64,000 nucleotides of DNA from Escherichia phage vB_EcoS_VAH1. Under the pieces are notes generated by a model. It did no database searches. It was not told where the DNA came from and saw only the letters and a program-made list of their open reading frames with translations. Positions 9,751 through 55,296 of the stretch are shown one piece after another; within the stretch, counting starts at the first letter, position 1; each line of letters starts with the position of its first letter. The stretch lies in the sequence record MK373792.1; one strand, 5' to 3'. The position numbers and the translations under genes are program-made.

Positions 9751-9755
9751 TAAAT

Positions 9756-9782
9756 AGAGGGGCTTCGGCCCCTTTCTTTTTA
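9756..9782 (+). terminator. Rho-independent terminator
   Basis: AGGGGC-TTCG-GCCCCT hairpin followed by TTCTTTTT. Confidence 0.7.
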
Positions 9783-9786
9783 ACCA

Positions 9787-10263
9787 ATGATTACACAAGA
9801 GCGATTAAAAGAGCTGTTAGATTATAATCCTGAGACTGGAGTATTTACCTGGAAAGTATCTCGTGGTAGAGTTTCAAAAGGATCTGTAGCTGGAACAGCA
9901 GTATCAGTAGGGAATAGGTACACCCGCTGGGAGATTCGAGTTGAAGGAAAAAGATATAAGGCGCATCAGTTAGCATTTCTATACGTTCATGGTTATATTC
10001 CACCTGAGATTGATCATGAAGATAGGAATCCATTGAATAATGCAATACTTAACCTAATAGACTCTTCAAAGTCTCGTAATCAATTAAATAAGAATAAAAA
10101 CTTCGGTAAAGAAACACCAAAAGGAGTCTTTGTAAAAGCCTCTACTGGAAGATACTTCGTACAGATTCAAGGAAAGCACTACGGCTACTTTGATGACGTA
10201 GAACAGGCCAGAACTGTTGCTAATGAGGTATATGATAGGTTGTTAAATGAGAATACTGTTTAG
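9787..10263 (+). CDS. HNH homing endonuclease (MITQERLKEL family)
   Basis: N-terminus MITQERLKELLDYNPETGVFTWKVSRG; HNH motif YKAHQLAFLYVHGYIPPEIDHEDRNPLNN. Confidence 0.8.
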   Translation: MITQERLKELLDYNPETGVFTWKVSRGRVSKGSVAGTAVSVGNRYTRWEIRVEGKRYKAHQLAFLYVHGYIPPEIDHEDRNPLNNAILNLIDSSKSRNQLNKNKNFGKETPKGVFVKASTGRYFVQIQGKHYGYFDDVEQARTVANEVYDRLLNENTV

Positions 10264-11224: not shown

Positions 11225-13043
11225 GACACTAAAATTTAGTAACGTTATGTCTTACGGTAAGGACATCGTAATTCATTTCGATAAGAATCCAGTTACTCAA
11301 CTAATTGGTGGCAATGGGCTAGGGAAATCCACCATCGCTACTGTTATCGAGGAATTGTTTTATAACAAGAACTCACGTGGTATTAAGAAGGATGCTCTAT
11401 TCTCTTGGAATGCCCCTAAGAAAGAATATGATATGCACGCTTATTTCTCGAAAGATGATGATGAGTATGAGCTGCATAAAGTAGTTAAATCAACTGCTAA
11501 AGTAACGTTGATTAAGAATGGGGAAGATATTAGTGGACATACGGCAACCCAAACATATAAAATGATTGAAGAGATTATGGGCGGTGACTTTCAAACGTTC
11601 ACCAAACTGATTTATCAATCAGTGGGTTCCAACCTAGATTTTCTAAAAGCAACAGATGCAACACGTAAGGCTTTTCTTGTCAACTTGTTTAATCAAGAAC
11701 AATACAAAGAAATGTCGGAAACTATTAAGGCTGACCGTAAAGAAATAGCAAATACCTTAAATAATTTGCAGGGCCAAATGGCTGTAATTACGAAAATCCT
11801 TAATGGAAAAAATAATCTAGGAACTTTGCAGGAACCTATAGAAGTACCGGAGTTTGATGAAGAGCCATTAGCACAAGAACTTACTGAATCGAAAATTAAG
11901 GCGGCATTAGCCAAGTCTCAAGAGGCTAATATTACTAAGTTGCGTAATTTGGACAAAGCTGTACAAGTTGCCGAACAATCTTTCGAACCTTTCAAAAATT
12001 TGCCCGCGCCCACCGACCAAAGTGAAGAGATCTCGAGTGTTACGCGTGACCTAACGATTGTGACCTCACGTGCGAGCGAAGTTAAGAAACGTTATCAGAA
12101 GTTCAAGCAAGAGGCTTCAAATACTGAATGCCCTACTTGTGGCACTCATCTGGATACAACTGCTGCTCAAAAAGCAATGGATATGGCTAGAATAGAATAT
12201 GATCCTCTGTTCAAAGAGAAGCAATCTCTTGAAGCTAAGCTAGAACAGTTGAAGAAAGAACAACTTGAGTACGTTGCGTATACTAGAGCAAAGGATGCTC
12301 TTGATAAAGCGGTGGTAGCTAGAGACGAGTTCAAAAATTCAATGAGTGATGCTTCTTTTGAAGAACTCAATGTGCAAATCCTACAGGTGCAAATACGACA
12401 ATTAGAACAGGCAATCGCTGATGGACGTTCTAAGGTTGCAATTGCCAAAGAGCATAATGCAAATGTCGAATTAGCCAATGCAAAATATAAAGCAAAGCTA
12501 GAACAGATTGAGAAAGCTGAAGCAGAAATGTCTGAGATTACTTCCAAACTGAATGGAGTATCTGAAGCTGTTGCTGATCTCGATATTCTGATTGCTGCAT
12601 TGAAAAATCTGGTGGGATATAAGCTAGAACATAGTGTGAAAGTATTTGAAGAACTAATTAATAAATACCTTTCCATTATGACTGGTGGTAAATTCGCACT
12701 TGGATTCGAACTTGATGAAACGAAGTTACAAGTAGTAATCTTCAATGATGGAAACCGTACCAGTATGGAGAACTGCTCTACTGGTCAGCAAAGTCGAATT
12801 AATCTAGCAACCCTGTTAGCTATTCGAATGCTGTTAACATCTATTAGTAAAGTTAATATTAATCTTCTATTCCTTGATGAAGTAATTAGCTTTATTGATA
12901 CGAAAGGACTTGATACTCTCGTTGAATTATTAAATGAGGAAGAAAGTCTAAATTCTATCATTGTTTCTCATGGGCATACGCATCCATTAGCTCATAAGAT
13001 TACTGTCAAAAAAGATGCAGAAGGATTTTCCTACTTAGAATAA
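11205..13043 (+). CDS. SbcC/Rad50-like ATPase
   Basis: Walker A GGNGLGKST; long coiled coil with CPTCG zinc-hook-like motif; signature CSTGQQSRINLATLLA; Walker B LLFLDEV. Start set at ATG 11205, overlapping the sbcD-like stop. Confidence 0.85.
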   Translation: MSKITIKTLKFSNVMSYGKDIVIHFDKNPVTQLIGGNGLGKSTIATVIEELFYNKNSRGIKKDALFSWNAPKKEYDMHAYFSKDDDEYELHKVVKSTAKVTLIKNGEDISGHTATQTYKMIEEIMGGDFQTFTKLIYQSVGSNLDFLKATDATRKAFLVNLFNQEQYKEMSETIKADRKEIANTLNNLQGQMAVITKILNGKNNLGTLQEPIEVPEFDEEPLAQELTESKIKAALAKSQEANITKLRNLDKAVQVAEQSFEPFKNLPAPTDQSEEISSVTRDLTIVTSRASEVKKRYQKFKQEASNTECPTCGTHLDTTAAQKAMDMARIEYDPLFKEKQSLEAKLEQLKKEQLEYVAYTRAKDALDKAVVARDEFKNSMSDASFEELNVQILQVQIRQLEQAIADGRSKVAIAKEHNANVELANAKYKAKLEQIEKAEAEMSEITSKLNGVSEAVADLDILIAALKNLVGYKLEHSVKVFEELINKYLSIMTGGKFALGFELDETKLQVVIFNDGNRTSMENCSTGQQSRINLATLLAIRMLLTSISKVNINLLFLDEVISFIDTKGLDTLVELLNEEESLNSIIVSHGHTHPLAHKITVKKDAEGFSYLE

Positions 13044-37840: not shown

Positions 37841-38643
37841 ACCTTTGAGATCTTTAACATGATCAATAGCATTAAAGGTATCAAAGATCTGGCCTTCGAA
37901 TACAGAGAAGTCAGCCTCGTATTCTTGGCGGAAGTAGTTTTACTAACTGTACGACGTGCTTCCTCAATGTCATTCAGGTCAGCACGTGGGTTATCACGAT
38001 ATGTACCATGAATAGATACCCAGTTAGGCAACGTATCATCAAATCCGTAGGCGTAAAATTCTTTAAACCAGTTACCCCCACGAGGGGTGGAAATAAATAG
38101 AGCTTTAGAATTAGGTTTATCTAGAGTAGGACGCAGCTGAACCCTGAAGGCATCACCACCCACATCGGAAATTGCCGCCTCGTCAAAGATGATAAAATCA
38201 TATGAACGTCCAACTGCGGAGTCAGCCTGAGCCGCGGAAGCTAGTTTAAATAGAGAACCATTAGCTAACTCAATCTCTTTATCTTTAGCGTTTTCACGTT
38301 CGGTTTGTAGGCCATACTTCTTAATAAGACCACGAATCTGAGACCATCCGATATTGGCCAGTGAGTAGTTAGGGGCAACTACTAGCACCTTCACATTAGG
38401 TTCCAGCAATTTTAGGAACCCAAGTGTATACGCTATAAAAGATTTACCTACACGGCGTGATACACACGCCGTTACAAAACGATGTCTAGGGTCTTCTAGC
38501 GCATTGATAATTGCTATTTGAGGGCCGTTAGGTGTAATACCCTCTTGTGCTAGTATTCCGGAAACGGGTAAACGAAAGAAACGCTTATCTATTCCGAAAT
38601 CAATAACATCTACTGTATTAACATAAGGTCTTGATACTTCCAT
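37714..38643 (-). CDS. terminase large subunit, N-terminal ATPase domain (frameshifted gene)
   Basis: Walker A-like SRRVGKS and Walker B YDFIIFDEAA. After ...DIEEARRTVSK the frame turns into low-complexity garbage. Confidence 0.85.
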   Translation of the reverse strand: MEVSRPYVNTVDVIDFGIDKRFFRLPVSGILAQEGITPNGPQIAIINALEDPRHRFVTACVSRRVGKSFIAYTLGFLKLLEPNVKVLVVAPNYSLANIGWSQIRGLIKKYGLQTERENAKDKEIELANGSLFKLASAAQADSAVGRSYDFIIFDEAAISDVGGDAFRVQLRPTLDKPNSKALFISTPRGGNWFKEFYAYGFDDTLPNWVSIHGTYRDNPRADLNDIEEARRTVSKTTSAKNTRLTSLYSKARSLIPLMLLIMLKISKVCVTSLKMMKHSKRCLVLTLVIVILQQFLLLNIITIRIPTTC

Positions 38644-39125
38644 TACTTCTTACCTCCAGTAGCTAGGGAAGTGATTAAGTCCATGTAATTTTGATCCCCA
38701 GCTCCAGCAATAATGTTATTCTGGATATTGGTCTGATTAGCAGGAGCTCGGACGGCAGCTTTAGCTTTTTCTAGCTCTACCATCATCTTCATTTCTTCCA
38801 TCTTCATTTTGTGTGCTTTCCAGAGAATATCCATAATATCTTGGTCAGAACCCATGCCGGTTTCTTCCAGTTCCTCTAGTTTACGCTTGATAACTTCATC
38901 CAGAACACCAAATAAACGATCCCTATTACGGAAACCACTCTCCATAAAAATATCATTTAAGTAGTTCTTAACTTCACTACGATTCATAATATCTCGGAAA
39001 GCAATTTCGGACATTCCAAGACTACGTGCGGCAGAAGGCACATCGCTGCCACACTGTAAATAAGCTTCAATTACATCCATCCCTTCAGGGGACATAAGAT
39101 CTGGTACTAATACATCATTTGCCAT
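38643..39125 (-). CDS. putative terminase small subunit (HTH protein)
   Basis: 160-aa ORF immediately upstream of the terminase large subunit; HTH-like [19 protein letters not shown]. Confidence 0.5.
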
Positions 39126-42541: not shown

Positions 42542-42716
42542 TTAGCGCTATTAACCTTTTTGCCAAATTCTTTGGATTACGTACGCGTGGGTGTGCTCAC
42601 TGCCACCGGCGAAAATACTTAGTCTGCTAACCGCCACCCCCGTTACTATTACCATGCTAACTGTTTCACCCTGCAACCATTTTAATTGCAAGGTGAAACA
42701 ATTTCAACTTTAATTA

Positions 42717-43451
42717 TTACGCAACTTTTAATTTCTCAATATACTGTTGCGGGCTGCAACTATATTCTGCGCGTTCTTCTTCAGTCATACCTTCCCAACA
42801 TAATTGCAAGCGATCGGCTAGGAACTGATAATCATTATCATCCTCAAGAGATTCGTCAATAAAGGTTTCACCTATCAATGTGACACCGATTGATAGAATA
42901 TCATTAACGGCTTGCGCGTCCAGCGTTTTAAATCCGTATGATGCCGCCGCTGCCAATACTCCCTTATGATCGTCGATCATCGTGAAATCAGCGTTCGGAT
43001 ATAGCTGTTTAAATAGCTCAAAGTAATGACTTTTATATATAGCGTCCTTACTGTGGTATATTTCGCTAACCTTATCAGCTTCAAAATATTTGTGAAGCGT
43101 ATCGCGGGAAAATACACGGATATTACTATTTCCACGCCCTCGCAGTCCTTGTTTGCGCAGGTAATAATAATCTGACTTGCTCATCAGTCGAGCGGTACAA
43201 ATAACGTTTAACGTGTTGGCGTCATTCATGCACTGGCGCATATATGTAACAAGCGGCAATAGTGTATCTTGCATTATTAAATCATGTTTGCAGGCTTCAT
43301 TTTTATACTTATTTAAATCTAAATTGCCCTCGCTATCAAAGCAAGGCGCTACGCGATGGAAAGAATTGATGATTGTTCCGTCCAGATCCCAAATCATGAC
43401 GCGGGAAATATGCGGGAAATTACGGGTAATATTCGTTTTAACTTGATTCAT
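42717..43451 (-). CDS. dmp: 5'-deoxyribonucleotidase, HAD-superfamily (T5 dmp-like)
   Basis: HAD motif I IWDLDGTI; 244 aa; adjacent to the A1/A2-like genes. Confidence 0.75.
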   Translation of the reverse strand: MNQVKTNITRNFPHISRVMIWDLDGTIINSFHRVAPCFDSEGNLDLNKYKNEACKHDLIMQDTLLPLVTYMRQCMNDANTLNVICTARLMSKSDYYYLRKQGLRGRGNSNIRVFSRDTLHKYFEADKVSEIYHSKDAIYKSHYFELFKQLYPNADFTMIDDHKGVLAAAASYGFKTLDAQAVNDILSIGVTLIGETFIDESLEDDNDYQFLADRLQLCWEGMTEEERAEYSCSPQQYIEKLKVA

Positions 43452-43491
43452 TTTGTTACGTTCTCCGTTTAAGGGATTAGATTAATTCAGC

Positions 43492-43518
43492 ATTGCCCGC
43501 TTATAAATAGCGGGCAAT
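43492..43518 (-). other. perfect 9-bp stem-loop downstream of the A2-like gene
   Basis: ATTGCCCGC-TTATAAATA-GCGGGCAAT; no U-tract follows on the minus strand. Confidence 0.4.
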
Positions 43519-43531
43519 AATAAATCAACTA

Positions 43532-43927
43532 TTAAAGACCATAAGCCAACGCATCAGCGATAAAACTAATATCCTCACCTGATACATCGGAACGGATGCC
43601 CGCGCATGTAAATACCTTCGCGCTCATTAGCTGATCATCAAGGCAAGCGGGGCAAGGCGCGACAACTGCAAAGGCTAGGCCTGATTTCACCGCGTCGATG
43701 ATAATCGTTTCCTGTTTTACCGTGTCAATGTAAACGCCTTTCGCCTTGATGCGGCTGGATAGTTTGCCCGTGGTATAGGCGAAAGTCGTGATCTGAAGCG
43801 CCTCGTTAAACTCCATCAAATCATCAACAACGTGACCGGCCTCAACGTGATACCGCTCACCATTTGAATAAACTAGGACGATGGAAGAATGAGCGCGATC
43901 GAATGGAATACGGTTATTAATAGCCAT
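43532..43927 (-). CDS. pre-early protein, A2-like by position
   Basis: 131-aa ORF immediately downstream of the A1-like gene; called by synteny with T5 only. Confidence 0.4.
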   Translation of the reverse strand: MAINNRIPFDRAHSSIVLVYSNGERYHVEAGHVVDDLMEFNEALQITTFAYTTGKLSSRIKAKGVYIDTVKQETIIIDAVKSGLAFAVVAPCPACLDDQLMSAKVFTCAGIRSDVSGEDISFIADALAYGL

Positions 43928-43996
43928 GTTTATAACTCCAATTAATTTAATAAACTTTTATAGCGGCGGTATATTTCATCCGCCCGCCTGATTTAA

Positions 43997-45661
43997 TTAC
44001 GAGAAAAATTTACCATTTTTAAAGTCGATCAAGGTGCGTTGACCGTTTGCATAGGTAATAACATGCGTTTGTGTCCAGCTTGACGCGCCAACGTTATAGC
44101 CCATATCAAGGGAACCAGACACGCCAGCGGTATAAACGCCGCCGTAGATGCTGGCGGTGTGAGTGTGCCCCGTGTTTAATTTGCCCAATTTCTTAAACTG
44201 TTTTGGATTTCCACGGCTCCCGTTAATGCCGTTGTGACCATGTACACCGCACTCAATGCCTGCAATCTTGAAAGATTGATCAGTCGTTAGGAAAATTGCG
44301 TTAAACTCACAACCTGCAACCTTGCGCAGCGCATAATCTAGCACGTTGAAGGTGTCATCTTTTTCTGCAATAGCTCCGTAAATCGCAGCATTAAGGCGGT
44401 GATACAGTTCCGCGTTGGCTGGGTCGTCTTTAATGTTGGCGTTACGATCATCCAGCCAACGTGATAGCGCCAGATCGTGATTAGATTCAACAATGATTGT
44501 TTGACTAAAATCACGTTCCATCGATTCCAGCACGCGCCCCGTATCGATAAGATCATCCAGAACTTTATCACGTCCGGCTGCATATTGTTTTGCTAGGAAT
44601 ACACCGGACGCACGATTATGATGATTGCGCGATGTAAAATCATGCACGTCATGGATAAACTGATATTTTGGTTTAAGAATATCAAGCAAGCTATTTTCGC
44701 CAGCCCATGACGCAGCGGCGCAATCGTCATCTAATTTTTCGGCGTGTATGTCACCGTATTGTAAACCTAAAACATGCCCCGATGTTTCATAGCATCCTGC
44801 GGGAGTAGCGCAAACATTCAGATCATAAAACACGCCGCTTTCGTCCATCGTTTCAAGCTGGCGCACAAAAAACTCACCGTCTTCGTCGAACTCAACAATA
44901 AGCGCACCGAAGTTATGCAGCGCCTCGGCCTTTTGTCCTGCTTTCTGCTGGATGTAATTTTTTAGCGTCGCCGTGCCGGTTGAATACATACGGCGTACTA
45001 CTTCACCTTTTAAAGCTGGAACGCTTTCGGCGGTGATTTTAGCGTGACCAATTGCCAGACCTTCAAGATTAAGCGCGGTTGCAGTTTCAGCGAATCCAGA
45101 AAGCGGATAATCTGCGGTGGGCAAAACATTAATTTCAGCCATGAAAGCAAAGCGGCGATTGTTTAAAAACACGTTTTTATTGCAGATATATTTGTCAAAC
45201 GCGGAATCATATTTGATTCCGTCAGCACCTTCCCCATTTTGAAAACCGTTTTTATTATAAATATACTTGCTAACCAGCAAATCAGCGCCAATAAATTGGG
45301 CATATTGTTCAAGCGAGGCTAAAAAGTTTTTATGCGGGAAAGTATTATTCTGAATCGATGTAATAATAAAGCGTTTACCTTGTTTTACTTCCCAGCTTTC
45401 CACCGTGCTAGAAATAACTCCAGCGGCTTCAGGGCGGTCATCGTTTTTTATGGCTTTTGCTACTTTCGCCGCTTTTGGTTTCGCTGGTTTATTTGCTTCC
45501 AACCAGTCACAAATCGCGGTCGAGTGTTTTGTAGTATCATAGACCGCTTTTGAAATATCGTCGCAGACTTCCAGTTTAGTAGCGCGCAGACGTTTACCGT
45601 AGAAATTGAAATCAGCGGCCATTTTCAGGATAACGGTTTGTTTTTCTGCGGAAATAATCAT
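43997..45661 (-). CDS. A1: pre-early A1-like protein with calcineurin-like metallophosphoesterase motifs
   Basis: 554 aa; metallophosphoesterase-like motifs GDIH, ESNHD, GHTHT; higher GC than the surrounding genome. Confidence 0.7.
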   Translation of the reverse strand: MIISAEKQTVILKMAADFNFYGKRLRATKLEVCDDISKAVYDTTKHSTAICDWLEANKPAKPKAAKVAKAIKNDDRPEAAGVISSTVESWEVKQGKRFIITSIQNNTFPHKNFLASLEQYAQFIGADLLVSKYIYNKNGFQNGEGADGIKYDSAFDKYICNKNVFLNNRRFAFMAEINVLPTADYPLSGFAETATALNLEGLAIGHAKITAESVPALKGEVVRRMYSTGTATLKNYIQQKAGQKAEALHNFGALIVEFDEDGEFFVRQLETMDESGVFYDLNVCATPAGCYETSGHVLGLQYGDIHAEKLDDDCAAASWAGENSLLDILKPKYQFIHDVHDFTSRNHHNRASGVFLAKQYAAGRDKVLDDLIDTGRVLESMERDFSQTIIVESNHDLALSRWLDDRNANIKDDPANAELYHRLNAAIYGAIAEKDDTFNVLDYALRKVAGCEFNAIFLTTDQSFKIAGIECGVHGHNGINGSRGNPKQFKKLGKLNTGHTHTASIYGGVYTAGVSGSLDMGYNVGASSWTQTHVITYANGQRTLIDFKNGKFFS

Positions 45662-45757
45662 ATTAATAAAACTCCATTAAAGGGATTAAAAACGTTTGTT
45701 ATTGGCAAATATTGCCAAATATAACGCCTTGAATAATAGGCGTTATAATTTGCAACA

Positions 45758-45955
45758 TTAATTTAAAGGCATAAGGCTAGAACTAACACCACAAGCAACG
45801 GCAACAATAAAGCAAAGTAAGCCTAAACGCTTCGCTAGTTTAGATTTACGTTTAAAATAATATGAATCTAAATCATTTTGAAAATAAGCAAATAATAATG
45901 AGGCCGCCATAATAAATAAGCCTAGAATGAGGGATTCAGTAGGGTAAAAGATCAT
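45758..45955 (-). CDS. small membrane protein
   Basis: 65 aa with two predicted TM helices. Confidence 0.45.
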   Translation of the reverse strand: MIFYPTESLILGLFIMAASLLFAYFQNDLDSYYFKRKSKLAKRLGLLCFIVAVACGVSSSLMPLN

Positions 45956-46011
45956 TTTAAAACTCCAGTCAAAGGGAAATTATAGTGGGGAATATTCCCC
46001 ACTAATTAAAT

Positions 46012-46428
46012 TTATTCACCTGCGGCCTGTTTTACTTCATCGGCAACGCCCAATAGTTGCGCCACGGCGTCCAGCGTTTCCAATTTTGCGCTTTCCAGTG
46101 ATGCCAGATCGTCAGCGTCTTTGATAATGCCGGAATCGATGGCATGTTTTGCAATGACGCGTACATAATGCGCCTTGCGAATTGAACTGCCGCCGCCAAC
46201 TTTGCGCGGCTTATCGCTTTTCTGATACGCTTTTGCGCTGGTCAATTTTGAGCGAACAGACACGGGAGAAGCCGCGCCAACTGTTTTTGCAATCTCTTTC
46301 AGGCCGTCGCTGTTAGCGAACTCCAAGCCGTTTTCATTGATGAGCTGTTGATACATGGTAACAGCCTGTTGGGTGTTTTCTTCATTCCATGCGAATTTTG
46401 CGGATTTTTCGGTTTTAACGTTAGCCAT
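46012..46428 (-). CDS. hypothetical pre-early protein
   Basis: 138-aa ORF with RBS GGAG; preceded by an operator-like palindrome. Confidence 0.5.
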   Translation of the reverse strand: MANVKTEKSAKFAWNEENTQQAVTMYQQLINENGLEFANSDGLKEIAKTVGAASPVSVRSKLTSAKAYQKSDKPRKVGGGSSIRKAHYVRVIAKHAIDSGIIKDADDLASLESAKLETLDAVAQLLGVADEVKQAAGE

Positions 46429-46463
46429 GATTGTAACTCCTATCGATTTAATTTAAGGGATAA

Positions 46464-46512
46464 GATTAACATAATGTTAATCGTTATATACCCCGAACTA
46501 CTGGGGTATATA
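46464..46512. promoter_or_regulatory. operator-like 19-bp palindrome plus 10-bp-stem hairpin
   Basis: GATTAACAT-A-ATGTTAATC (46464-46482) and TATATACCCC-GAACTACT-GGGGTATATA (46485-46512). Confidence 0.45.
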
Positions 46513-46526
46513 AAAGTAACACTAAA

Positions 46527-46778
46527 TTACGCTACAGCTTCCCATTTTTCGTTGCGCTGGATAACCTTTACAACGTCGCCGGATTTAACCCGAACGCTAT
46601 AAATAGTTTTTCCGTTGTTACTCCGTTCCGTTTCAGCGTATACCGCGTCAATCACATCAAACGGCATAAGCGCCGCGCCTTTGATGCGTTCGGCCTTTCC
46701 GGTTAATTCGTCCGTTTTAGTAACGAAAGGGATGAAAACGGATTGACCAATTTTTGGCGCATTAGTAACGTTTTTCAT
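46527..46778 (-). CDS. hypothetical pre-early protein
   Basis: 83-aa ORF with RBS GGAG. Confidence 0.5.
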   Translation of the reverse strand: MKNVTNAPKIGQSVFIPFVTKTDELTGKAERIKGAALMPFDVIDAVYAETERSNNGKTIYSVRVKSGDVVKVIQRNEKWEAVA

Positions 46779-47010
46779 GGTATAAACTCCAGTTTATTCA
46801 GTGGATTGTTCCGCATTACCTGCTGTAAAAATAGTGGCAGGTAATAAGTAACAATCCGCTCGCCATTATAATCAATTTAAAGAACTCCTCTCAGGCCGCT
46901 ATATCCCAGTTAGGGGGCGGGGCACATTATGGTAAGTGCCGACCGTCAAATTGTATCAAGTTATCGCTCTTATCGAACTGGGTACATCTTAAAGCCTATC
47001 GGCTAGGGTG

Positions 47011-47214
47011 TCAAACAATTTTTTGCAGTTTTTTATGATTTTCTTTCAAGTCAATCATAATGTTTCGCCAGATCATTTCCAGACCTTGCTGGCGGCCTTT
47101 CTTGTACTGCGTGAATCTATATTTTACGGATTGCTGAGCTATTGTCAACAATTTTTTAGTAGTACCATCCAATTTTTTGGCGGGTTTACCAGTGATCAAT
47201 AAAGTTTGTTTCAT
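47011..47214 (-). CDS. hypothetical basic small protein
   Basis: 67-aa Lys-rich ORF. Confidence 0.4.
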   Translation of the reverse strand: MKQTLLITGKPAKKLDGTTKKLLTIAQQSVKYRFTQYKKGRQQGLEMIWRNIMIDLKENHKKLQKIV

Positions 47215-47715
47215 ATCTGCGATTCCTTATATTATATAAGTTTTCCGCCGATAGACTTTAAGATATACCCAATTTTTAAAGAGCGCGGCGGTAAACTTCC
47301 CCGCCGTTGTAGTCCGTTGCCGTCCTACGAGATAAATAATAGGTGATTCCCAAAAATGGCGCAACCTTATTTTTGTAAAGAAACGTAAAGAAAGCAAATA
47401 ATCGCAGGGTGTCCGGCGATTGCCTAAGTTTAAAGGAAACGGGCGCGCGAATACCATAAAACCGAGCAGATAGGCAAGTAATTTTTTCATTTATATTTGC
47501 TTTGCCCTACTTGACAAATCTTAAAAAGCTCGTGGTAGCGATAAACGAGGGTAGGCAATGCAATGGCATACCTGAAAATTTTACCGCTTTCTAGGGCGTT
47601 TTAGGCGGCTCATTTTCGATTTAACAAATATTTAACAAAAGCAAAATTGAAAAATAGTTTGAAAAGGTATTGACTTTTTAAAATCAAGACTAAACGAGTT
47701 ATTTTATAAAATTAA

Positions 47716-48234
47716 TTAATTGACAATTCCAAATTCAGCTTTTTTAGTTTCTACCCATAATAATAACTCTTGTAAATCATAACCTGATTTACTAACACTT
47801 TTGTTACTAGTAGGATCTTTAACTATAGCGCGCAAATAGTTTCTTCCGTTATTATCAACTCTAGAACCATTATAATAGATATGCTTAGGCAACTTATTAG
47901 CACGCTTATAATCTTTCTTGTTATTCATATTCTGCTTATGATCTACTAAGCGAAGATTATTAATGTTATTATTAGCACGGTTACGATCATTATGATCGAT
48001 TGTTAGATTGCTATCAATCTCACCATTAAATAATACCCATATTATTCTATGCACTGCGTATTGTTCGCCTGCTAACTTTACTCGATAGTAACCTGTGTTA
48101 CTATAATGCCCTGCAATATCACCCACCTTACTATTACCTTTCTGTACTTTCCACCTTAGAAATGATGGGGATGTTTCATCATAATAAAAGTTATCATTAG
48201 CAAGCGAATAATCTATATCTTTAAATAGACCCAT
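47716..48234 (-). CDS. HNH homing endonuclease
   Basis: YAVHRIIWVLFNGEIDSNLTIDHNDRNRANNNINNLRL HNH motif; AP2-like C-terminal domain. Confidence 0.75.
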   Translation of the reverse strand: MGLFKDIDYSLANDNFYYDETSPSFLRWKVQKGNSKVGDIAGHYSNTGYYRVKLAGEQYAVHRIIWVLFNGEIDSNLTIDHNDRNRANNNINNLRLVDHKQNMNNKKDYKRANKLPKHIYYNGSRVDNNGRNYLRAIVKDPTSNKSVSKSGYDLQELLLWVETKKAEFGIVN

Positions 48235-48425
48235 TGTTATAGTTTCCTTATGTTATTAGTTTAATCTCTATTATATTATATCAAAATCATTAGCAGACTA
48301 CCTAATGAGTTTTTCAGGTTTAATTAGCAGACTCATAATCACTCTAAAAACCTATTAGCCAACTAACTATATTTTATTATATAATAACAACATAAATTAG
48401 TTAGTGAGAAACACTATCATTTAAG

Positions 48426-48533
48426 TTATCCACAGGTTTATACATTTTGTAAATTTGATTGACACAATAGGAAGGCTTTATAGCACTTTTACACAGACTT
48501 ATCCACAGGTTATTCCACTGTATAAATATACAG
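48426..48533. promoter_or_regulatory. DnaA-box pair plus 16-bp palindrome module (copy 1)
   Basis: TTATCCACA at 48426-48434 and 48499-48507; palindrome CTGTATAAATATACAG at 48518-48533. Confidence 0.55.
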
Positions 48534-48799
48534 GGTAAAGGGGAAGCATATTATAATGATGCCCAAAATAAGCGGCCTAAAACGCTTTCTAACGAGCTAA
48601 ATGCGGTGGGGTAATATTAAAGTAAAGCCTTCACCCGTCGCCCTGGTGGCTTCACCGTGTTTTGCTCTTTACTGTACCGCTGCGCGGTTAGCATAAAACT
48701 AGGCGTTAGGCAAGGAAAATAAAAAGGTAAAATAATATTTGCCTATGCTAGAAAATTACCTTTACCATTCACTCACCGATTAACGAGGGAGGCCAACAA

Positions 48800-49777
48800 A
48801 TGAGGCTGTATAAACCAGATAACGCAACCGTCTTAAAAGGTGCGCTGCGTAACCTGCTGGACGGTAGCAGAACAACCAGCATCAAACATTTTGTTAACAA
48901 GGCCGAAGATATTCACCAAAACTTTTTTGATGATTTCGATGCCTATGATATGAGTAGTTTTTTGCAACTGTATAAGCAAGGGGCAACGATTATCTTGTAT
49001 AATCGAGATAATCACTTGCTTACTAGCAGGGGGCCGGATACTGATTTTATAATCGTAAAAGGTAGCATAGTAAAAGCCTATGATACTGGGGCGGGCTTAG
49101 AAGTTTTTTCAATAGAAAATTATGAAGCCAACCCCAATGATCTTTATGACGTAGAAAATTTTCTCGATTCATTTTGGCGTTATTTATCAGTTGGCTGGAA
49201 TCGGTCAATTGGTGACGGGTATCGTCTGGCGGCTGTAATGGCTTTTGATGACGATGGCAATTTTTTGCTACCACGGGAGCTATACCCATATGTATATGAT
49301 GGCGACATCGAAAGCGCGGGCTTTTCTTTCTGGAAGGAGGAGGATCAGCCTATTGACAACACGGAAAAACATGCTGTAAATTCTAACACTCAAACCATTG
49401 AAAACAAAGGAAAAAATGCCATGACCAAGATCGCTAATATCGTTGCCGCTAATAAGTCCGCCGTTGTAAATGCTGCAAAACTGGAAGCGGGTAAAATTGC
49501 ACTGACTCAAATTACGAAAGTAGCGGCTAAAAAAGCACCGTTTATTATCAAGGGTTATATTGATACGCCGATTGGTCGGGTAGTGATTGCCAACCTGCTG
49601 AGCGTAGCGGTTGACCAGTACGCCCCAAGTAACCAAAAGGCGAAAGCGGTAGCGGATGCAGCTATGGAAGCGGCTATGTTAGAAATGGTGCAATCTTTTA
49701 ACATTGCTGAGATGATTGATGAAATGGTGAAAGGTATTGATATTTCTACTTTTACCGTTAACACCGAAAACGAGTAA
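48800..49777 (+). CDS. hypothetical protein (pre-early region)
   Basis: 325-aa ORF with RBS GAGGGAGG; no recognisable motifs. Confidence 0.55.
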   Translation: MRLYKPDNATVLKGALRNLLDGSRTTSIKHFVNKAEDIHQNFFDDFDAYDMSSFLQLYKQGATIILYNRDNHLLTSRGPDTDFIIVKGSIVKAYDTGAGLEVFSIENYEANPNDLYDVENFLDSFWRYLSVGWNRSIGDGYRLAAVMAFDDDGNFLLPRELYPYVYDGDIESAGFSFWKEEDQPIDNTEKHAVNSNTQTIENKGKNAMTKIANIVAANKSAVVNAAKLEAGKIALTQITKVAAKKAPFIIKGYIDTPIGRVVIANLLSVAVDQYAPSNQKAKAVADAAMEAAMLEMVQSFNIAEMIDEMVKGIDISTFTVNTENE

Positions 49778-49897
49778 TAGTTAACCTAGTGTAAAGTTTT
49801 GTAAAGGTCGCCATAATCGGCGGCCTTTTTTGTTATAATGCCTTTACACCGTTCGAGGACGGTTGAAAATTTTCCCAAAAAATTTTGGAGGCTTAAA

Positions 49898-50128
49898 ATG
49901 GTTGCATATTCTTCTTCTGACGCTCTTTTCACTGGAAAAGGCTGGGTATCAAATCGCTGGATCATTCAAGAAATGGTGCAAGAATACGGCATTGCTAAAA
50001 CTTACACTACCATTCAGGCGCTTTATGATAATGATCAAATTGATCAGCAAACAGCGGGCTTTTTGCTGGATACCCTGAAGGCGGAACATTGCACTAAAAA
50101 ACAAGCTGCAAAAATTATTTTAATGTAA
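49898..50128 (+). CDS. hypothetical small protein
   Basis: RBS TGGAGG before ATG 49898; the ORF-track start at 49838 is an upstream in-frame Met without an RBS. Confidence 0.45.
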   Translation: MVAYSSSDALFTGKGWVSNRWIIQEMVQEYGIAKTYTTIQALYDNDQIDQQTAGFLLDTLKAEHCTKKQAAKIILM

Positions 50129-50177
50129 GTAATAACGGGGGATATACAGTATCCCCCACTAACTAGGGGAAATAAAA

Positions 50178-50324
50178 ATGGTTATTTTTCGGTCAATTCT
50201 AGCGGGTATCTTGGGCGCTATTTTATCCCTTTTTGCAATAGCTTTCGACGTTCACGCGGTTACTATTGGCGCGGGTATCGCTGTTTTTTCTTATTTGCTG
50301 GGCTGCATGAGTAAAGGAGAATAA
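50178..50324 (+). CDS. small membrane protein (48 aa)
   Basis: RBS AGGGGA; two hydrophobic helices; preceded by hairpin GGGGGATA-TACAG-TATCCCCC. Confidence 0.4.
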   Translation: MVIFRSILAGILGAILSLFAIAFDVHAVTIGAGIAVFSYLLGCMSKGE

Positions 50325-50326
50325 AA

Positions 50327-50539
50327 ATGATTCGTAACGTTTCCCTTGCCCGTTCCAAAGGCTTTAAGCTGGTGGACGTTAACACGTTCGAACGGGAAGA
50401 CTGTAAAATCGAATATATAGCACGGAATAAAAACGCCTTTCGTGTTACAGAAAAGAAATTTGATAAGCGTGGCAACGTGATAGCTGAAAAGGTTAAATAT
50501 TTTGCCACCTTTTACGCTGCATTTCGTGGGGTACTATGA
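50327..50539 (+). CDS. hypothetical small protein
   Basis: 70-aa ORF tightly packed after the previous gene. Confidence 0.45.
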   Translation: MIRNVSLARSKGFKLVDVNTFEREDCKIEYIARNKNAFRVTEKKFDKRGNVIAEKVKYFATFYAAFRGVL

Positions 50540-50766
50540 AAAGCGTTGTTGTTATTATCCTTGCAATGGTTGGCGGTTTTACTGCCACCTTATTTAAGAA
50601 TGATCCCCTTTTACTGGGGATTTTTATGCTTTTATCTGGTTATCTGATTGGGAGGCTAACAAATGATTCAACAAATTAAAAGGGCGTTCCAATATTGGGG
50701 CGTCCTGCCTTCAATCGGTTTTATTCTGATAATCATTAGTCAGCTAATGATTATAGGCGGAACTAT

Positions 50767-51126
50767 TTGGGAGCTATGCAAATGGTAATTTATGAGGGCA
50801 ATCGCTTTGTTACTAATTGCCGTCCGGCATTGTTAGCAAACTACTTAAACCAGCTTTCACCTGAATATAAGGGCGTCATTAATATTTACGAGGGAAAAGC
50901 GCATTATAAAATCAATGCGGTCGTTGCCCGTGAACTAGCGTTTCAATTTTTAACCTTTGCATCGTGTGATATTCAGGTCATGGGTGAGGCATTAATTGCA
51001 GAAAATGAAGACGATTTTATTAATATTTTTCGCAAGGTGTGCACCGAGCGCCTGATCATGAAAGGCGCATATATTCAATCAACGGCGGATAGTATTGAAA
51101 CAGCGTTTCGAAAGGTGGCGCAATGA
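50767..51126 (+). CDS. hypothetical protein
   Basis: 119-aa ORF. Confidence 0.5.
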   Translation: MGAMQMVIYEGNRFVTNCRPALLANYLNQLSPEYKGVINIYEGKAHYKINAVVARELAFQFLTFASCDIQVMGEALIAENEDDFINIFRKVCTERLIMKGAYIQSTADSIETAFRKVAQ

Positions 51127-51227
51127 GATTATATATTTTCATTGGTAATGTTAAGGCTGCAAATGATTCCGCCGGGGGCGATAATGTTCGCCACTATTGG
51201 CAAAATTATATTTACTAGGGCGTTATT

Positions 51228-51422
51228 ATGAGCAATAAAATTATTGTAACCAAAACTACCACAATGGTTGACGTTTTTTATGTGCCCGATACGCTGGAAA
51301 ACCGGCAAGCGGTCGAGCGTGGCGAGTATGATAAAGTGATTTATGATCACGATGGTTATTATAAGCATTTGGTGGATTCCTACGGGGAGGAGGAAAAAAT
51401 CACGCATCAATTACCGGACTGA
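51228..51422 (+). CDS. hypothetical small protein
   Basis: 64-aa ORF with an acidic C-terminus. Confidence 0.45.
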   Translation: MSNKIIVTKTTTMVDVFYVPDTLENRQAVERGEYDKVIYDHDGYYKHLVDSYGEEEKITHQLPD

Positions 51423-51661
51423 CAACAAGCGGGGCGCAACTATCAGGGAGTGCCCCCAATTCTCAAATGAGAATGATTCTCATTTGACCGCGCCCGCGAT
51501 GGTTAGCCTGCTAATGATTAGGGTGTTACGTGTCGCCTTGTGTGATAGTTAGCGAGCTAACTAATTTTCAAGCCTCCTCCAATTTTGCCCTTGTTTTAGT
51601 ATCCCCATCAAAATAAAACGCGTTAGAATGCGATTCAGGGCGTTTTAGGCCTATATTAGAA

Positions 51662-51789
51662 TTATCCACTGTGTAGGAATACTGTATAAATATACAGTAG
51701 GATAAGCTGTGGATAAGTCTGTTGATAACGCTTCAAAATGGCTAGAATTCTGTCAAGGCAAATCGTGCTGTTGATAAGTCTGTGGATAA
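51662..51789. promoter_or_regulatory. cluster of five DnaA-box-like sites plus 16-bp palindrome (copy 2)
   Basis: TTATCCACT (51662-51670), TGTGGATAA (51708-51716, 51781-51789), TGTTGATAA (51720-51728, 51769-51777); palindrome CTGTATAAATATACAG at 51682-51697. Confidence 0.6.
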
Positions 51790-51814
51790 CTTAAATAACA
51801 GTGTTTCTCACTTC

Positions 51815-51980
51815 CATTCTTAAATGAGAATCATTATCATTCGTATTCCACTTTTTAAATGAGAATCATTTCACTTTTTAAATGAGAATCATTTCACTTT
51901 TTAAATGAGAATCATTCCCTTTCTTAAATGCGAATCATTATCATTCGCATTTCACTTTTTAAATGAGATTGATTCTCATT
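51815..51980. repeat. tandem array of about six ~21-bp repeats (consensus TCACTTTTTAAATGAGAATCATT)
   Basis: Direct reading: repeated TTAAATGAGAATCATT cores with sub-repeats CATTATCATTCGCATT. Confidence 0.75.
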
Positions 51981-51999
51981 ATCATTCGCATTCAGGCGA

Positions 52000-52017
52000 G
52001 CAGGGCAATTGCCCTGC
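52000..52017. other. perfect 18-bp palindrome GCAGGGCAATTGCCCTGC
   Basis: Perfect dyad, followed by a short T-run (GCTTTTG). Confidence 0.5.
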
Positions 52018-52022
52018 GCTTT

Positions 52023-52803
52023 TGTGCAAATCCGACATTTGCTCCAAGGGTTACGTGCTGGCGTGTATGTGCGAATCCGACAATTTTTGGTAGTGTGCAA
52101 ATCCGACCCGAAAAATTTTTATAGTGTGCGAATCCGACAATGAATTTTCCCAAAAACTCCAGCAATCACGAACTGCGTTCGAATCCTGTGGGATATGTGC
52201 AAATCCGACACGGTTTTTCTAGGATTAAGATGTGCGAATCCTACAAGATTTTTGTGACTTCGATGAGAGGGTGTGTGATTGTATAGGTTTGAGGAGAAGT
52301 TGAGAGAGCGAGAAAAATTTGGGGAGCTAGAAGGATGTGGGCGCAGGATTGGTGCGAAGCACCTGATTTGCGGGGATTTTGGGGAAGAGTTGAGATAATT
52401 TGGGGAAATTTGAGATAGGTGCAGAAAAAGTAAAATTTTATTAGCAAAATGGGGCAAAATAGCTTGACAAGTGAAAATTCTTGTGGCTCTAAAAACTCAG
52501 GCAATCATGGGCCTTCGGCCCGAAATAATGCTGCTATTTTCAGGAGAGTAAGAGTTCCTAAAAACTTAGGCGTTTGTGCAAATCCGACCATAAATTTCTA
52601 GAAATGCAGTGTGCAAATCCGACAGTAATTTCTGGAAATGTGTTTTCAAAAAATGTCTCCTAGAAATAACCGCCCTCCCTATAACCGCCCTGTATTAAAC
52701 CGCCTAGTATATGTAACGTTGGAGAGAAACTGCCCTAGAATATGTGCAAATCCGATGAATATTTTTGTGCTTATCAATTTCCTAGAATATGTGCAAATCC
52801 GAT
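52023..52803 (+). repeat. dispersed array of ten 15-bp iterons, consensus TGTGC(A/G)AATCCGACA
   Basis: Copies at 52023, 52068, 52095, 52125, 52196, 52231, 52575, 52610, 52743 and 52790, all in the same orientation. The last two lie in a duplicated ~35-bp unit; TGTGCTTATCAATTTCCTAGAA is also duplicated. Confidence 0.75.
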
Positions 52804-53176
52804 GAATATTTTTGTGTGATCTCTAGAATTTGTGCTTATCAATTTCCTAGAAACTTAGGAGTCTAGAAGAAAGTGTTGTGCCATCCTAGCAGATGAGCGG
52901 CAACCGGTGTATCATCTTGAACACAGATATTGCCTTTAAATATTATAAGGTAAATTAAAAGTAAAGTAGCCCCCATTACATGTGTGCTTACTCGTGGGGC
53001 GCGTGATTAATTACGTAAGTCCTCGACTGTCATACCCCTGTTGCTCGGTCGCAAAGAGTTAACGAAGTCTCGTGTAATAATCATCGCCCCTAGAGTTCAA
53101 AACAAGAGTTGTTTTTAATCTATGTGATTATTATAACATGTGCCGCAATGAGTTGTCAAGAAGATTTTGTTAACTT

Positions 53177-53560
53177 TTATTCCTCCTCTTCGAGATTGGT
53201 ATTGGGATCGTAAATTTTCTTGGCTCCTGTATTTAATAGGAATCGCTCTGCAAGTTGTGGGTGAATATCAAAGAACTCTGTGCATCCTTCGAATCCCTTT
53301 AAATTACAGCGGTATTTCTTAAAGTAGATATGAGCAGCGGCTTCTAGATCTCTAGGATTATGGGTTTCATAAATCCCATACACGTATAAATCGTCAAAAC
53401 CTCGATAGACTATCTTATCTAAGTTTAGTGTTTGAATCCTATTATGTGGATTCATACTGATACCGATCTTTGTTCTTTTAGGGATCTTCGTCAGATCCCT
53501 ATTTGCAAGAATATATACTTTATATAGTGACATTCTTTCTAGCCTTGAGTTTGATACCAA
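53177..53560 (-). CDS. T5orf172 (GIY-YIG-like) domain protein
   Basis: KVYILANRD...KIGIS...RIQTLNLD...YVYGIYETHNP...GCTEFFDIH matches the T5orf172 domain pattern; TTG/ATG start ambiguous. Confidence 0.6.
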   Translation of the reverse strand: MVSNSRLERMSLYKVYILANRDLTKIPKRTKIGISMNPHNRIQTLNLDKIVYRGFDDLYVYGIYETHNPRDLEAAAHIYFKKYRCNLKGFEGCTEFFDIHPQLAERFLLNTGAKKIYDPNTNLEEEE

Positions 53561-54236
53561 GAGATGCGAAGTAGATATAAGTTGCTAAATAGGACATAGC
53601 AGATCCTGTCTCTTCGTAAGAGAGAGTTCCTTTCACGTACCTCTTATATTCTGGCTCTAGATTAATAATCGTAGTACTTGGCAATCCTAGCGAATTACAT
53701 AATGATTTGAATGTTTCTTTATCTCTATGAATCGCATAGTGAATGGCTTTCTCCATTGGAGTTAACTCTAGATCTTTGGTAATGGCTACATGCAAACTCG
53801 CTATAGTCATGCCAATCCCACGATACGTTTCTTCTTTATTAAGGGAAGGTCTCTGTTTTTCTAGCTCAGGAAGATGTGCAAATTCTCCCTTCTTTCTAGG
53901 AATCTTATCATCACTAAGTAATGCTGTTAAGAAATCTGTTTCTTCATAGGCTGGGAGCACTTCATCAATTAATACTAGAATAGAGCTAGCATTGATACCT
54001 TTCGCACTAGGATCTAAAGATTTTAATGCTTTATTAGTTTCAACGTAGGAGCCTGCTAACACAACTTTTGAGCTATTCCGATCATATTTAATTTTATTCG
54101 CTTCCCAACGCGCAGGACGATAATCAGATAGAAACATTACCGCATACTTTTGTTCATCTGTTAGCTCGGAGAAACATTTCTGGTTTGATTCTTTTGCTAG
54201 CGCAATAAGGTGCTTTAGTTTTTCTGCTTTATTCAT
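53520..54236 (-). CDS. hypothetical protein (possibly the N-terminal part of the T5orf172 protein)
   Basis: 238-aa ORF overlapping the downstream ORF by 41 nt in another frame. Confidence 0.5.
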   Translation of the reverse strand: MNKAEKLKHLIALAKESNQKCFSELTDEQKYAVMFLSDYRPARWEANKIKYDRNSSKVVLAGSYVETNKALKSLDPSAKGINASSILVLIDEVLPAYEETDFLTALLSDDKIPRKKGEFAHLPELEKQRPSLNKEETYRGIGMTIASLHVAITKDLELTPMEKAIHYAIHRDKETFKSLCNSLGLPSTTIINLEPEYKRYVKGTLSYEETGSAMSYLATYIYFASLGIKLKARKNVTI

Positions 54237-54702: not shown

Positions 54703-55296
54703 TTAATCCTTTTTACTTTCGTTAATAACAGCTCCCAGTGCTTCCATAATTGTATCTTCTAGACTTCCATGTTTATCAGGATTGCTTAAGTGAATAGTAT
54801 ATGAGTTCCTAGAAACTCCAGAGTCCACAGGTGCTACGCTTTTCATGTCAGATTCAAAAGCTTCTTGAGTATGTTTCAACTGTGCAGAAGGTCCATAATC
54901 TTCACCAAACTTATATGACTGCGTACTACTTACCACACCCCCACAAGGAACATTGTGCAAATCCGATGATTTATTTAGCATTGAGATTGTCCCTGACTGC
55001 CACGGATCTCTAATAGTCACAGGAGTACTAGGACGGTTCACCTCAGTCTTCACGAGTTTATAGCCAGCATCTATTAATGCGTTAATAAGGTTATCAGCTG
55101 GAATGCGAGCCTTGCCAAAAATCTCACGAGCGTTGTTGAGCCTACCTTCAAAACCTTTACATGCTCTAATATTAGTGTGTGCAAAGGTTAGCTTCATAGA
55201 TTTGAATTGTACAGTAGCAGTTAAATCTTTAAAGCTATAATCCCATGTGTTCAGTTCATGGTCTGGTACTACTTGAATAGGTTGTTGTGTAAACAT
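54703..55296 (-). CDS. hypothetical protein
   Basis: 197-aa ORF. Confidence 0.5.
   Translation of the reverse strand: MFTQQPIQVVPDHELNTWDYSFKDLTATVQFKSMKLTFAHTNIRACKGFEGRLNNAREIFGKARIPADNLINALIDAGYKLVKTEVNRPSTPVTIRDPWQSGTISMLNKSSDLHNVPCGGVVSSTQSYKFGEDYGPSAQLKHTQEAFESDMKSVAPVDSGVSRNSYTIHLSNPDKHGSLEDTIMEALGAVINESKKD

Follow-up and report, generated by a model that had tools for sequence, protein, structure and literature searches.

The array of same-orientation 15-bp repeats analyzed here is the catalogued "direct repeat D" (DRD) family of bacteriophage T5 and its relatives and is, as such, not a new observation. What emerges from a comparison of T5-like genomes is its setting: as judged by alignment, the array brackets the conserved right-end cut site of the genome, abuts a nick site, and has a core that is conserved as far as Vibrio phages. 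The reading that explains this arrangement best, to which we give a probability of roughly one in three (about 0.35), is that the two clusters of the array constitute a pac-like recognition platform for terminase, which would position and orient the right-end cut. Two T5 questions are touched by the array: how DNA injection is stopped and restarted, a question more than 50 years old, and how the terminase recognizes and cuts concatemers to give terminal repeats of 10 kb. The comparative picture offers a 13-bp core, two proteins that may read it (A2 or the small terminase subunit), and a conserved cut site located between the clusters.

The array and its genomic context

The window, that is, the whole 64-kb stretch of DNA analyzed, derives from a T5-like phage (Demerecviridae), and all 447 phage records matching the array region are T5-like. 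The map obtained by alignment to the full T5 genome contains a single copy of the terminal repeat (Table 1); the source record is therefore one with a collapsed terminal repeat, with the array at the right edge of this repeat. The genes flanking the array are pre-early and early genes with other or unassigned functions. The array itself is situated between convergent transcription units, and a consensus minus-strand promoter is directed toward it.

Thirteen matches to TGTGCRAATCCGACA with at most two mismatches are present in the window, as opposed to 0.14 expected from shuffled sequences (largest shuffle value 2), and all 13 are found on the plus strand. Ten of them make up the array, five being exact, three carrying one mismatch, and two carrying two mismatches. 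The start-to-start spacings amount to 45, 26, 31, 71, 35, 344, 35, 133, and 47 bp and, given the gap of 344 bp, define two clusters (52023-52245 and 52575-52804) rather than a single even array. The initial annotation had described ten near-identical copies in one orientation, irregularly spaced up to position 52803, with the last two inside a duplicated unit of about 35 bp. Copy number, orientation, and irregular spacing are borne out; however, the last copy ends at 52804 and the span is that of two clusters. The duplicated unit corresponds to two identical 36-nt stretches at a distance of 47 bp, one around copy 9 and the other around copy 10. Among the other T5-like loci examined, no such duplication was seen; their spacing lists contain no final gap of 47 bp.

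Outside the array, the window harbors just three copies. An adjacent pair within the D13 (SbcC-like) gene encodes VQILQVQIRQ and has an equivalent in T5 at 78935/78950, and a single copy with two mismatches is antisense within an early ORF and homologous to a T5 copy at 12153. An insertion of DRD units into D13 was considered and rejected, there being no length difference from the BBMuffin and Proteus homologues of the gene. The whole T5 genome holds nine array copies and three copies elsewhere, excluding the six repeated in the right terminal repeat. The DRD sites are asymmetric, share a single orientation, and are essentially unique in the genome. The array is non-coding: the ORFs overlapping it are short and unconserved, no gene is annotated at the array in T5, and the spacings between copies vary among relatives by 10 bp, which is no multiple of three. 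Neither a similar motif density across the genome nor a location of the copies in conserved coding sequence of homologues, both of which the initial annotation had proposed to check, was encountered.

Table 1. Features of the window that bear on the array (positions in the window; a slash within a sequence marks a cut or nick)
Feature	Position	Strand	Remarks
Region equivalent to T5 67.4-111.4 kb	1 to ~42000		Replication, tail, head, and terminase genes (alignment to full T5 genome)
Region equivalent to the T5 terminal repeat	~42594-52489		One repeat copy (alignment to full T5 genome)
Region equivalent to T5 from 10220	52490 onward		Early region (alignment to full T5 genome)
Stray adjacent pair of DRD-like 15-mers	12371-12400 (starts 12371, 12386)	+	Inside the D13 gene
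Small terminase subunit gene	38643-39125	minus	Candidate reader; phrog_3802, E 1e-90
A1 gene	43997-45661	minus	
A2 gene	46012-46428	minus	Candidate reader; phrog_1725, A2 family, structure model, literature
Paired DnaA boxes	51706-51790		Upstream of the array, about 250-300 bp away
G+C-rich hairpin GCAGGGCAATTGCCCTGC, then T run	52000-52022	+	Terminator-like; overlaps T5 nick consensus CCCTGCGC/T
Nick predicted by homology	between 52019 and 52020	minus	Precedes copy 1 by 3 bp
DRD cluster 1, six copies	52023-52037, 52068-52082, 52094-52108, 52125-52139, 52196-52210, 52231-52245	+	Homologous to T5 "direct repeat D copies 1-6"
CYAAAAACTYAGGC, four copies	52150-52163, 52489-52502, 52558-52571, 52847-52860	+	Motif starting at the repeat end
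G-rich, C-poor spacer	52250-52463	+	Several TTTGGGG runs; GC skew +0.48 to +0.69; cluster 1 to repeat end
Conserved right-end element TTGACAAGTGAAAATTCTTGTGGCTC/TAAAAACTCAGGC	52464-52502	+	Homologous base is the last of the T5 genome
DRD cluster 2, four copies	52575-52589, 52610-52624, 52743-52757, 52790-52804	+	T5 equivalent has three copies
Identical 36-nt units	52734-52769, 52781-52816	+	Carry copies 9 and 10
Consensus promoter	53159-53130	minus	Directed toward the array
Stray single DRD copy	54954-54968	+	Two mismatches; antisense within early ORF

Identity with direct repeat D of T5

The nine motif matches of the T5 array fall exactly on the sites named "direct repeat D copy 1" to "copy 9" in the GenBank record AY587007. 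The copies lie within "repeat region 3", the region containing the injection stop signal, with "palindrome J" and "major single-stranded nick 1, 7.9%" ahead of them. In RefSeq NC_005859, copies 1-6 are located inside an "injection stop signal (iss)" feature (9140-10149) and the nick is placed at 9748/9749. The array of the window phage consists of the same 15-bp unit, on the strand reading left to right in the T5 map and with the copies in the same order. It lies directly behind the 7.9% nick and palindrome J, in non-coding DNA that separates the rightward pre-early operon from the early genes. The terminal repeat contains six of the copies, and about three more are found shortly beyond its end (6 + 4 in the window, 6 + 3 in T5). 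The two arrays differ in copy number, nine in T5 as opposed to ten in the window phage, because of the 47-bp duplication, and in the position of copy 5, which is shifted by 10 bp in the window (spacings of 71 + 35 instead of 81 + 25 bp). The source for the T5 repeats is the repeat region as treated by Davison (2020; bioRxiv 10.1101/866236, citing Heusterspreute 1987 and Wang 2005), which extends 270 bp past the terminal repeat; his model gives DRD no role. No role has been assigned to DRD in papers from 2020 to 2026, and the 2026 papers describe the stop signal just as a repeat-rich non-coding region.

Sequence elements around the array

Context that was absent from the initial annotation places the array across the right end of the direct terminal repeat, i.e., the boundary of first-step transfer, and has it begin 3 bp past a conserved nick site. 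The 7.9% nick of T5 is annotated at the position equivalent to the hairpin and CCCTGCGC of the window (52000-52019), and by homology the window phage would be nicked on the minus strand just before copy 1. The published T5 consensus reads R/GCGCRGG on the nicked strand and is said to be insufficient by itself for site choice. CCTGCGC is found 3 nt before copy 1 in four lineages (T5, the window phage, GZ8, and BBMuffin); before the first copy of My1, the nick consensus was not found. DRD was rejected as the recognition sequence of the nickase itself, given that the other three major T5 nick sites share CCYGCGC/Y and a downstream RTTACR and are devoid of DRD. Adjacency of nick and DRD is conserved only at the nick site of the terminal repeat.

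The terminal repeat of the window phage probably ends, by homology, after base 52489. Cluster 1 is thereby placed within the repeat, 258-466 bp left of its right end, and cluster 2 in unique DNA, 86-301 bp to the right of this end. The element at the right end follows the pattern GGGGGCAAAA..TTGACA..GAAAA..GTGGCTC/TAAAAAC. It is preceded by a G-rich spacer, and the motif that starts at the repeat end recurs on either side of it (Table 1). At the left end of the terminal repeat no comparable repeats were found, only a hairpin.

Other identities of the repeat were tried and rejected. The DnaA box (TTWTNCACA or TGTGNAWAA) is matched at 8/9 positions by TGTGCAAAT; however, lineages differ at its first T, which can be T, A, or G, and ATCCGA, the most conserved part of the core, lies outside any DnaA box. 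As for promoters or terminators, none of the ten copies is called a promoter and the counts equal the shuffle expectation. An RNA element or tRNA remnant was dismissed because the core, although resembling a tRNA T-loop (GTTCGAATCC), has no stem; a search of 51400-53700 turned up no tRNA, and the Rfam matches did not improve on E 0.59.

Conservation among T5-like phages

Two groups of repeats with the same core and relative orientation, divided by the recorded right end of the terminal repeat, are found in Klebsiella phage GZ8 (Sugarlandvirus), Pectobacterium phage My1 (Mccorquodalevirinae), and Vibrio phage BBMuffin (Ermolyevavirinae), whose A1 proteins are 73, 66, and 34% identical to that of the window phage, respectively. 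GZ8 has 4 + 4 copies to the left and right of an end at 9949, My1 has 6 + 3-4 copies around an end at 12854, BBMuffin has 6 + 3 copies, the nearest at -51 and +6 bp relative to the end, and in T5 the 6 + 3 copies surround an end at 10219; several genome ends in the databases were possibly set by homology to T5, so that not all of them are independent. In T5, GZ8, My1, and BBMuffin, the cut site bracketed by the clusters has the form TTGACA-N13-GTGGCTC/TAAAAAC. Position counts over 37 copies from four lineages reveal an asymmetric 13-bp core, GTGCAAATCCGAY, with invariant G2, T3, G4, A8, and A13 and with flanks that are unconserved except for a weak T-rich stretch downstream. The core is almost unchanged across lineages despite the divergence of A1 down to 34% identity. 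Its conservation across subfamilies, in contrast to the surrounding sequence, fits an array of sites for a sequence-specific DNA-binding protein, as the initial annotation had proposed.

When 2.9 million viral contigs were searched for pairs of core copies with a spacing of 5-35 bp, 48 stretches were recovered, nearly all on contigs of 86-123 kb, which corresponds to the size of T5-like genomes; two other contigs measure 12 and 47 kb. At about 40 IMG/VR loci, TTGACA-N13/14-GTGGCT occurs once between the clusters, and in T5-type genomes copy 6 precedes it by 218-220 bp, whereas copy 7 follows at 88 bp. In nine IMG/VR contigs, the sequence stops 1-2 bases past this element.

In Proteus phage 1 (Novosibvirus), the array was not found anywhere in the genome. 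This phage keeps CCTGCGC followed by one degenerate copy, TGTGCGTAATCGACT, and it also keeps the right-end element with TTGACA..GTGGCT, other repeats having taken the place of cluster 2. To judge from these remnants, the array has decayed or been lost in one genus with the cut site kept, and Proteus phage 1 represents a natural loss-of-array lineage for comparison.

Candidate readers

The statement of the initial annotation that no protein of the window is an obvious partner of the array was too strong, since A2 and the small terminase subunit are both encoded there. According to the literature, A2 is a DNA-binding pre-early protein essential for second-step transfer. Its structure model (pLDDT 81) is helical and features an N-terminal three-helix domain, for which Foldseek returned weak matches, all with E > 1, to helix-turn-helix domains that bind asymmetric sites as monomers. 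The model is consistent with DNA binding and silent on specificity. The likely recognition helix, SVRSKL, is nearly invariant across the A2 family including BBMuffin, with SVRTKL in Proteus phage 1. In the small terminase subunit, the presumed recognition helix of the helix-turn-helix differs between the window phage and BBMuffin (PVAEVEAQLKK), which have the same DNA core; the subunit of Proteus phage 1 is 50% identical. Sequence searches with A2 and the small terminase subunit against solved structures gave no match. All array-bearing phages compared have A2. The small terminase subunit was compared in two of them, BBMuffin and the window phage, and is present in each; both proteins are also present in the array-less Proteus phage 1, and no candidate emerged when the partner was sought by presence or absence of the array. 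In T5.072, T5.085, and T5.089, T5 ORFs common to BBMuffin and absent from Proteus phage 1, no DNA-binding domain was found.

A possible packaging signal and its alternatives

Among the roles that the initial annotation had offered, that of a site for a packaging factor fits best, whereas a replication initiator is least supported and control of transcription is unlikely for an array flanked by convergent transcription units. Signals of pac and cos systems contain or adjoin the point at which the genome end is made. The right genome end is likewise located in the gap between the clusters, within conserved sequence, in every lineage with recorded ends, which we count in favor of packaging. Such signals are also essentially unique in the genome, and here three stray copies and no left-end array are found. 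The absence of left-end repeats points to one recognition region per unit, as in pac and cos systems. A packaging signal is further supported by the confinement of the array to T5-like contigs among the viral contigs scanned, by the conservation of the core while flanks and proteins diverge, and by the one-way arrangement of asymmetric sites (13/13 in the window), as expected of a polar signal.

The first step would be the loading of a DNA-binding subunit onto the repeats that flank the cut site in the replicated concatemer; this would nominally be the small terminase subunit, possibly assisted by a helper protein. The complex would derive its polarity from the uniform orientation of the repeats. 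The large subunit would then cut ...GTGGCTC/TAAAAAC... and the DNA to the left would be packaged, terminal repeat first. The left end enters the cell first and, by a last-in, first-out rule that is general and not derived from T5 data, would therefore be packaged last, making the right-end cut the initiating one. Cluster 1 would stay on the packaged right end and cluster 2 with the next genome unit, and the nick site abutting copy 1 may belong to the same end-processing region. It is a tentative proposal, and a somewhat doubtful one, that the clusters together with TTGACA...GTGGCTC/TAAAAAC represent the terminase recognition and cutting signal of T5-like phages. If the array is a packaging signal, it could aid in calling the ends of hundreds of T5-like genomes deposited with collapsed or arbitrary ends. 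An element fixing the right edge of the repeat would, if real, also account for the proximity, within about 0.5 kb, of the end of the first-transferred DNA to that of the terminal repeat.

Evidence against a packaging signal comes from the small terminase subunit, whose recognition helix is not conserved where the motif is, and from Proteus phage 1, which keeps the cut-site element without the array, so that the cut site is apparently usable without DRDs. Moreover, copies are located up to 466 bp from the cut, farther than in classical pac sites, and three stray copies lie elsewhere in the genome. The geometry itself would also be expected for a boundary of first-step transfer, because the T5 boundary and the repeat end lie so close together. 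The main rival explanation, itself rather unlikely, is that the DRDs form the platform where transfer pauses at ~8%, a bound protein either blocking passage or restarting transfer. Given that the stop does not require newly synthesized protein, a blocking protein would come from the host or the virion. For a restart, A2 that has just been made would bind the stalled DNA, together with A1, while the repeats are entering the cell. Cluster 1, at 8.0-8.2% of the T5 genome in the left terminal repeat, does lie inside the annotated injection stop signal, the literature maps the stop to the repeat-rich region and no more finely, leaving its mechanism open, and the polar entry of the DNA matches the one-way orientation of the repeats. 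A2 would be a suitable agent: it is required for second-step transfer and encoded in the window, its model suggests, by weak matches, a helix-turn-helix-like N-terminal domain, and the near-invariance of SVRSKL parallels the invariant DNA core. However, the shear point defining the first-transferred DNA has been estimated at 9618, to the left of copy 1 at 9672 (AY587007), and the sites would therefore still be outside the cytoplasm at the pause, which weakens injection readings. Cluster 2 lies beyond the terminal repeat altogether, Proteus phage 1 has lost the array and kept a T5-like A2 (SVRTKL), and the published candidates for the stop signal are elements located leftward, i.e., DnaA-box pairs, the IRD'spacerIRC' inverted repeat, and the DRE and DRC repeats. 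In a stronger version of the packaging reading, one protein on the DRD sites would serve both packaging and the injection pause.

The remaining alternatives are improbable to differing degrees. The array might position or protect the nick at 7.9% and 99.5% as a nick-linked element of end processing, the nick priming, for example, strand-displacement copying of the terminal repeat, or it might be a polar barrier, with an oriented roadblock separating the convergent pre-early and early transcription units or obstructing replication forks. This would be in keeping with the insufficiency of the nick consensus for site choice, with the presence of CCTGCGC directly upstream of copy 1 in the four lineages named above and of the degenerate copy in Proteus phage 1, and with the annotation of the T5 polymerase as strand-displacing from nicks; a roadblock would suit a location between convergent operons, toward which the minus-strand promoter fires. 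Such a role nevertheless has a low probability, given that no DRD adjoins the other three major T5 nick sites (the nearest is the pair 360 bp from the nick at 78573), that synthesis from a nick at 9748 would duplicate the repeat incompletely, and that My1 has no nick consensus before its first copy. The viability of nick-deficient T5 mutants also counts against it. We regard it as similarly improbable that the DRDs are targeted by a protein, different from DnaA, that is conserved among the hosts Escherichia, Klebsiella, Pectobacterium, and Vibrio. Such a protein would account for the constancy of a core that is unchanged where A1 is 34% identical and the hosts belong to different orders, and the nearby DnaA boxes are conserved likewise; however, the array has been lost in a Proteus phage whose host should keep conserved factors. 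We know of no convincing match to the consensus of CRP, Fis, IHF, MatP, SlmA, XerC, sigma-54, or DnaA, the best likeness being 8/11 positions of the XerC arm of dif, with no XerD arm after it. Very improbable, finally, is a set of replication-origin iterons, in which repeats and DnaA boxes would be read by an initiator such as the UL9-like origin-binding helicase T5.108, encoded outside the window. The other strand of the herpesvirus UL9 box, CGTTCGCACTT, contains AGTGCGAA, as do some DRD copies, which is a lead only. The array is situated near the paired DnaA boxes, and Davison notes a resemblance to oriC. According to the literature, however, T5 origins map near the genome center and the replication genes are not expressed from first-step DNA, and the origin-binding homologue is present in the array-less Proteus phage 1.

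Comparison with known systems

Like origin iterons, the DRDs are direct repeats in one orientation close to DnaA boxes. They differ in that no initiator gene is adjacent, that irregularly spaced repeats of 13-15 bp contrast with the typical phased iterons of 17-22 bp, and that T5 origins are located elsewhere, all of which counts against an origin. The layout also resembles that of packaging signals. In P1 pac, 4 + 3 hexamers flank the cut, and in SPP1, pacL and pacR are arranged around pacC. The T5-like array shares with both the short repeats of the same type on both sides of the cut, the presence of one region per unit, and a directional asymmetry. It differs from them in its length of ~780 bp, as opposed to ~160-270 bp, and in its product, which would be a precise end with a terminal repeat of 10 kb, whereas P1 and SPP1 produce headful ends. 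The R sites of lambda cosB, next to cosQ, resemble the DRDs as multiple short sites beside a precise cut and in their polarity, and they are read by the small terminase subunit in lambda. While the lambda R sites lie on one side of the cut, with IHF bending the DNA in between, the T5 repeats, for which no bending site was identified, are found on both sides.

Spacing of the DRD copies

The spacing of the 15-bp direct repeat D (DRD) varies among T5-like phages. One T5-like relative, represented by two metagenome contigs (L044, 86 kb, at 5102-5215; L063, 47 kb), has six DRD units, AGTGCAAAWCCGACT, in a head-to-tail tandem that repeats every 15 bp. The protein that reads the repeat must consequently cope with distances ranging from 15 bp to beyond 45 bp. 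Between phage groups, copy 5 of the array is displaced by exactly 10 bp, corresponding to one helical turn (window 52125-52245 versus T5 9855-9975); the spacings around it are 71+35 versus 81+25 bp, their sum being 106 bp in both.

Sequence elements in and around the array

Features accompanying the DRD array or carrying stray DRD sequences
Feature	Window position	T5 position	Remarks
Adjacent pair of DRD-like 15-mers	12371-12400	78935-78964	within the D13 (SbcC-like) gene
Lone stray DRD copy	54954-54968	12153	array orientation; antisense within an early ORF
Nick-site regions	12003-12070; 52013-52060
Second repeat family, CYAAAAACTYAGGC	52150-52163; 52489-52502; 52558-52571; 52847-52860		interleaved with DRDs
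Spacer	52175-52475		strongly G-rich, C-poor; between cluster 1 (copies 1-6) and the terminal-repeat end
Direct repeat C and palindrome units (AATGAGAATCATT, AATGCGAATCATT)	51808-51993		neighbours of the DRD array
Predicted sigma-70 promoter, perfect consensus	53159-53130		minus strand; just downstream of the last early ORF

The second repeat family carries no annotation in T5 records. One of its copies begins precisely on the terminal repeat's last base, and after each of the first two come AATCAYG and a small hairpin. Within the spacer, the GC skew reaches +0.69 and several TTTGGGG runs occur; similar runs, TTTTGGGG, are found in Klebsiella phage GZ8, Vibrio phage BBMuffin and one metagenome relative. 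The direct repeat C and palindrome units have TG.GAATC in common with the DRD core; this family and DRD may be related, or related proteins may read both.

Nick sites and stray DRD copies

The four major T5 nick sites (9748, 22336, 39746 and 78573) have more sequence in common than the published consensus, namely CCYGCGC|Y, followed after about 30 nt by RTTACR(Y)GTG. Earlier authors asserted a need for 'additional sequence' at these sites, and the pattern extended by RTTACR(Y)GTG may be that sequence. At the nick site of the terminal repeat, the spacer between the two parts holds DRD copy 1. The nick consensus site at window position 12003 (T5 nick 78573) lies about 360 bp from the DRD-like pair in D13. 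This pair encodes VQILQVQIRQ, part of a coiled-coil stretch; compared with its homologues in BBMuffin and Proteus phage 1, the gene has no insertion there. The lone stray copy is also present in T5.

Genome ends and the cut-site element

In three IMG/VR loci (L026, L039 and L040), a DRD-like sequence directly follows TTGACA...GTGGCT in the cut-site element, replacing TAAAAAC, as exemplified by GTGGCT|CAAATCCGACAC. Such junctions could have been created by the assembly at collapsed repeats, or they could reflect genuine recombination. The annotated terminal-repeat end of Salmonella phage Kenya-K18 (L002 3727) lies about 110 bp to the left of the conserved T5 cut site, and one IMG/VR genome (L018) ends 38 bp past copy 6. 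Both deviating ends are probably imprecise end calls; they nonetheless fall within the gap between the two DRD clusters. In Proteus phage 1 (L010 4380-6820, reverse strand), the DRD array is reduced to one degenerate copy adjoining CCTGCGC. The conserved cut-site element is retained there, and new repeats occupy the region: some ten GAATAATAGAATGG units plus three units of 46 bp.

A promoter facing the array

The predicted promoter, composed of TTGACA, 18 nt and TATAAT with a TG, is directed toward the DRD array. The first 243 nt (window 53122-52880) contain no ORF of note and fold better than shuffled sequences (z = -3.1). A small RNA, or transcription that enters the packaging region, could originate from this promoter. 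Proteus phage 1 has a very similar promoter at the equivalent position.
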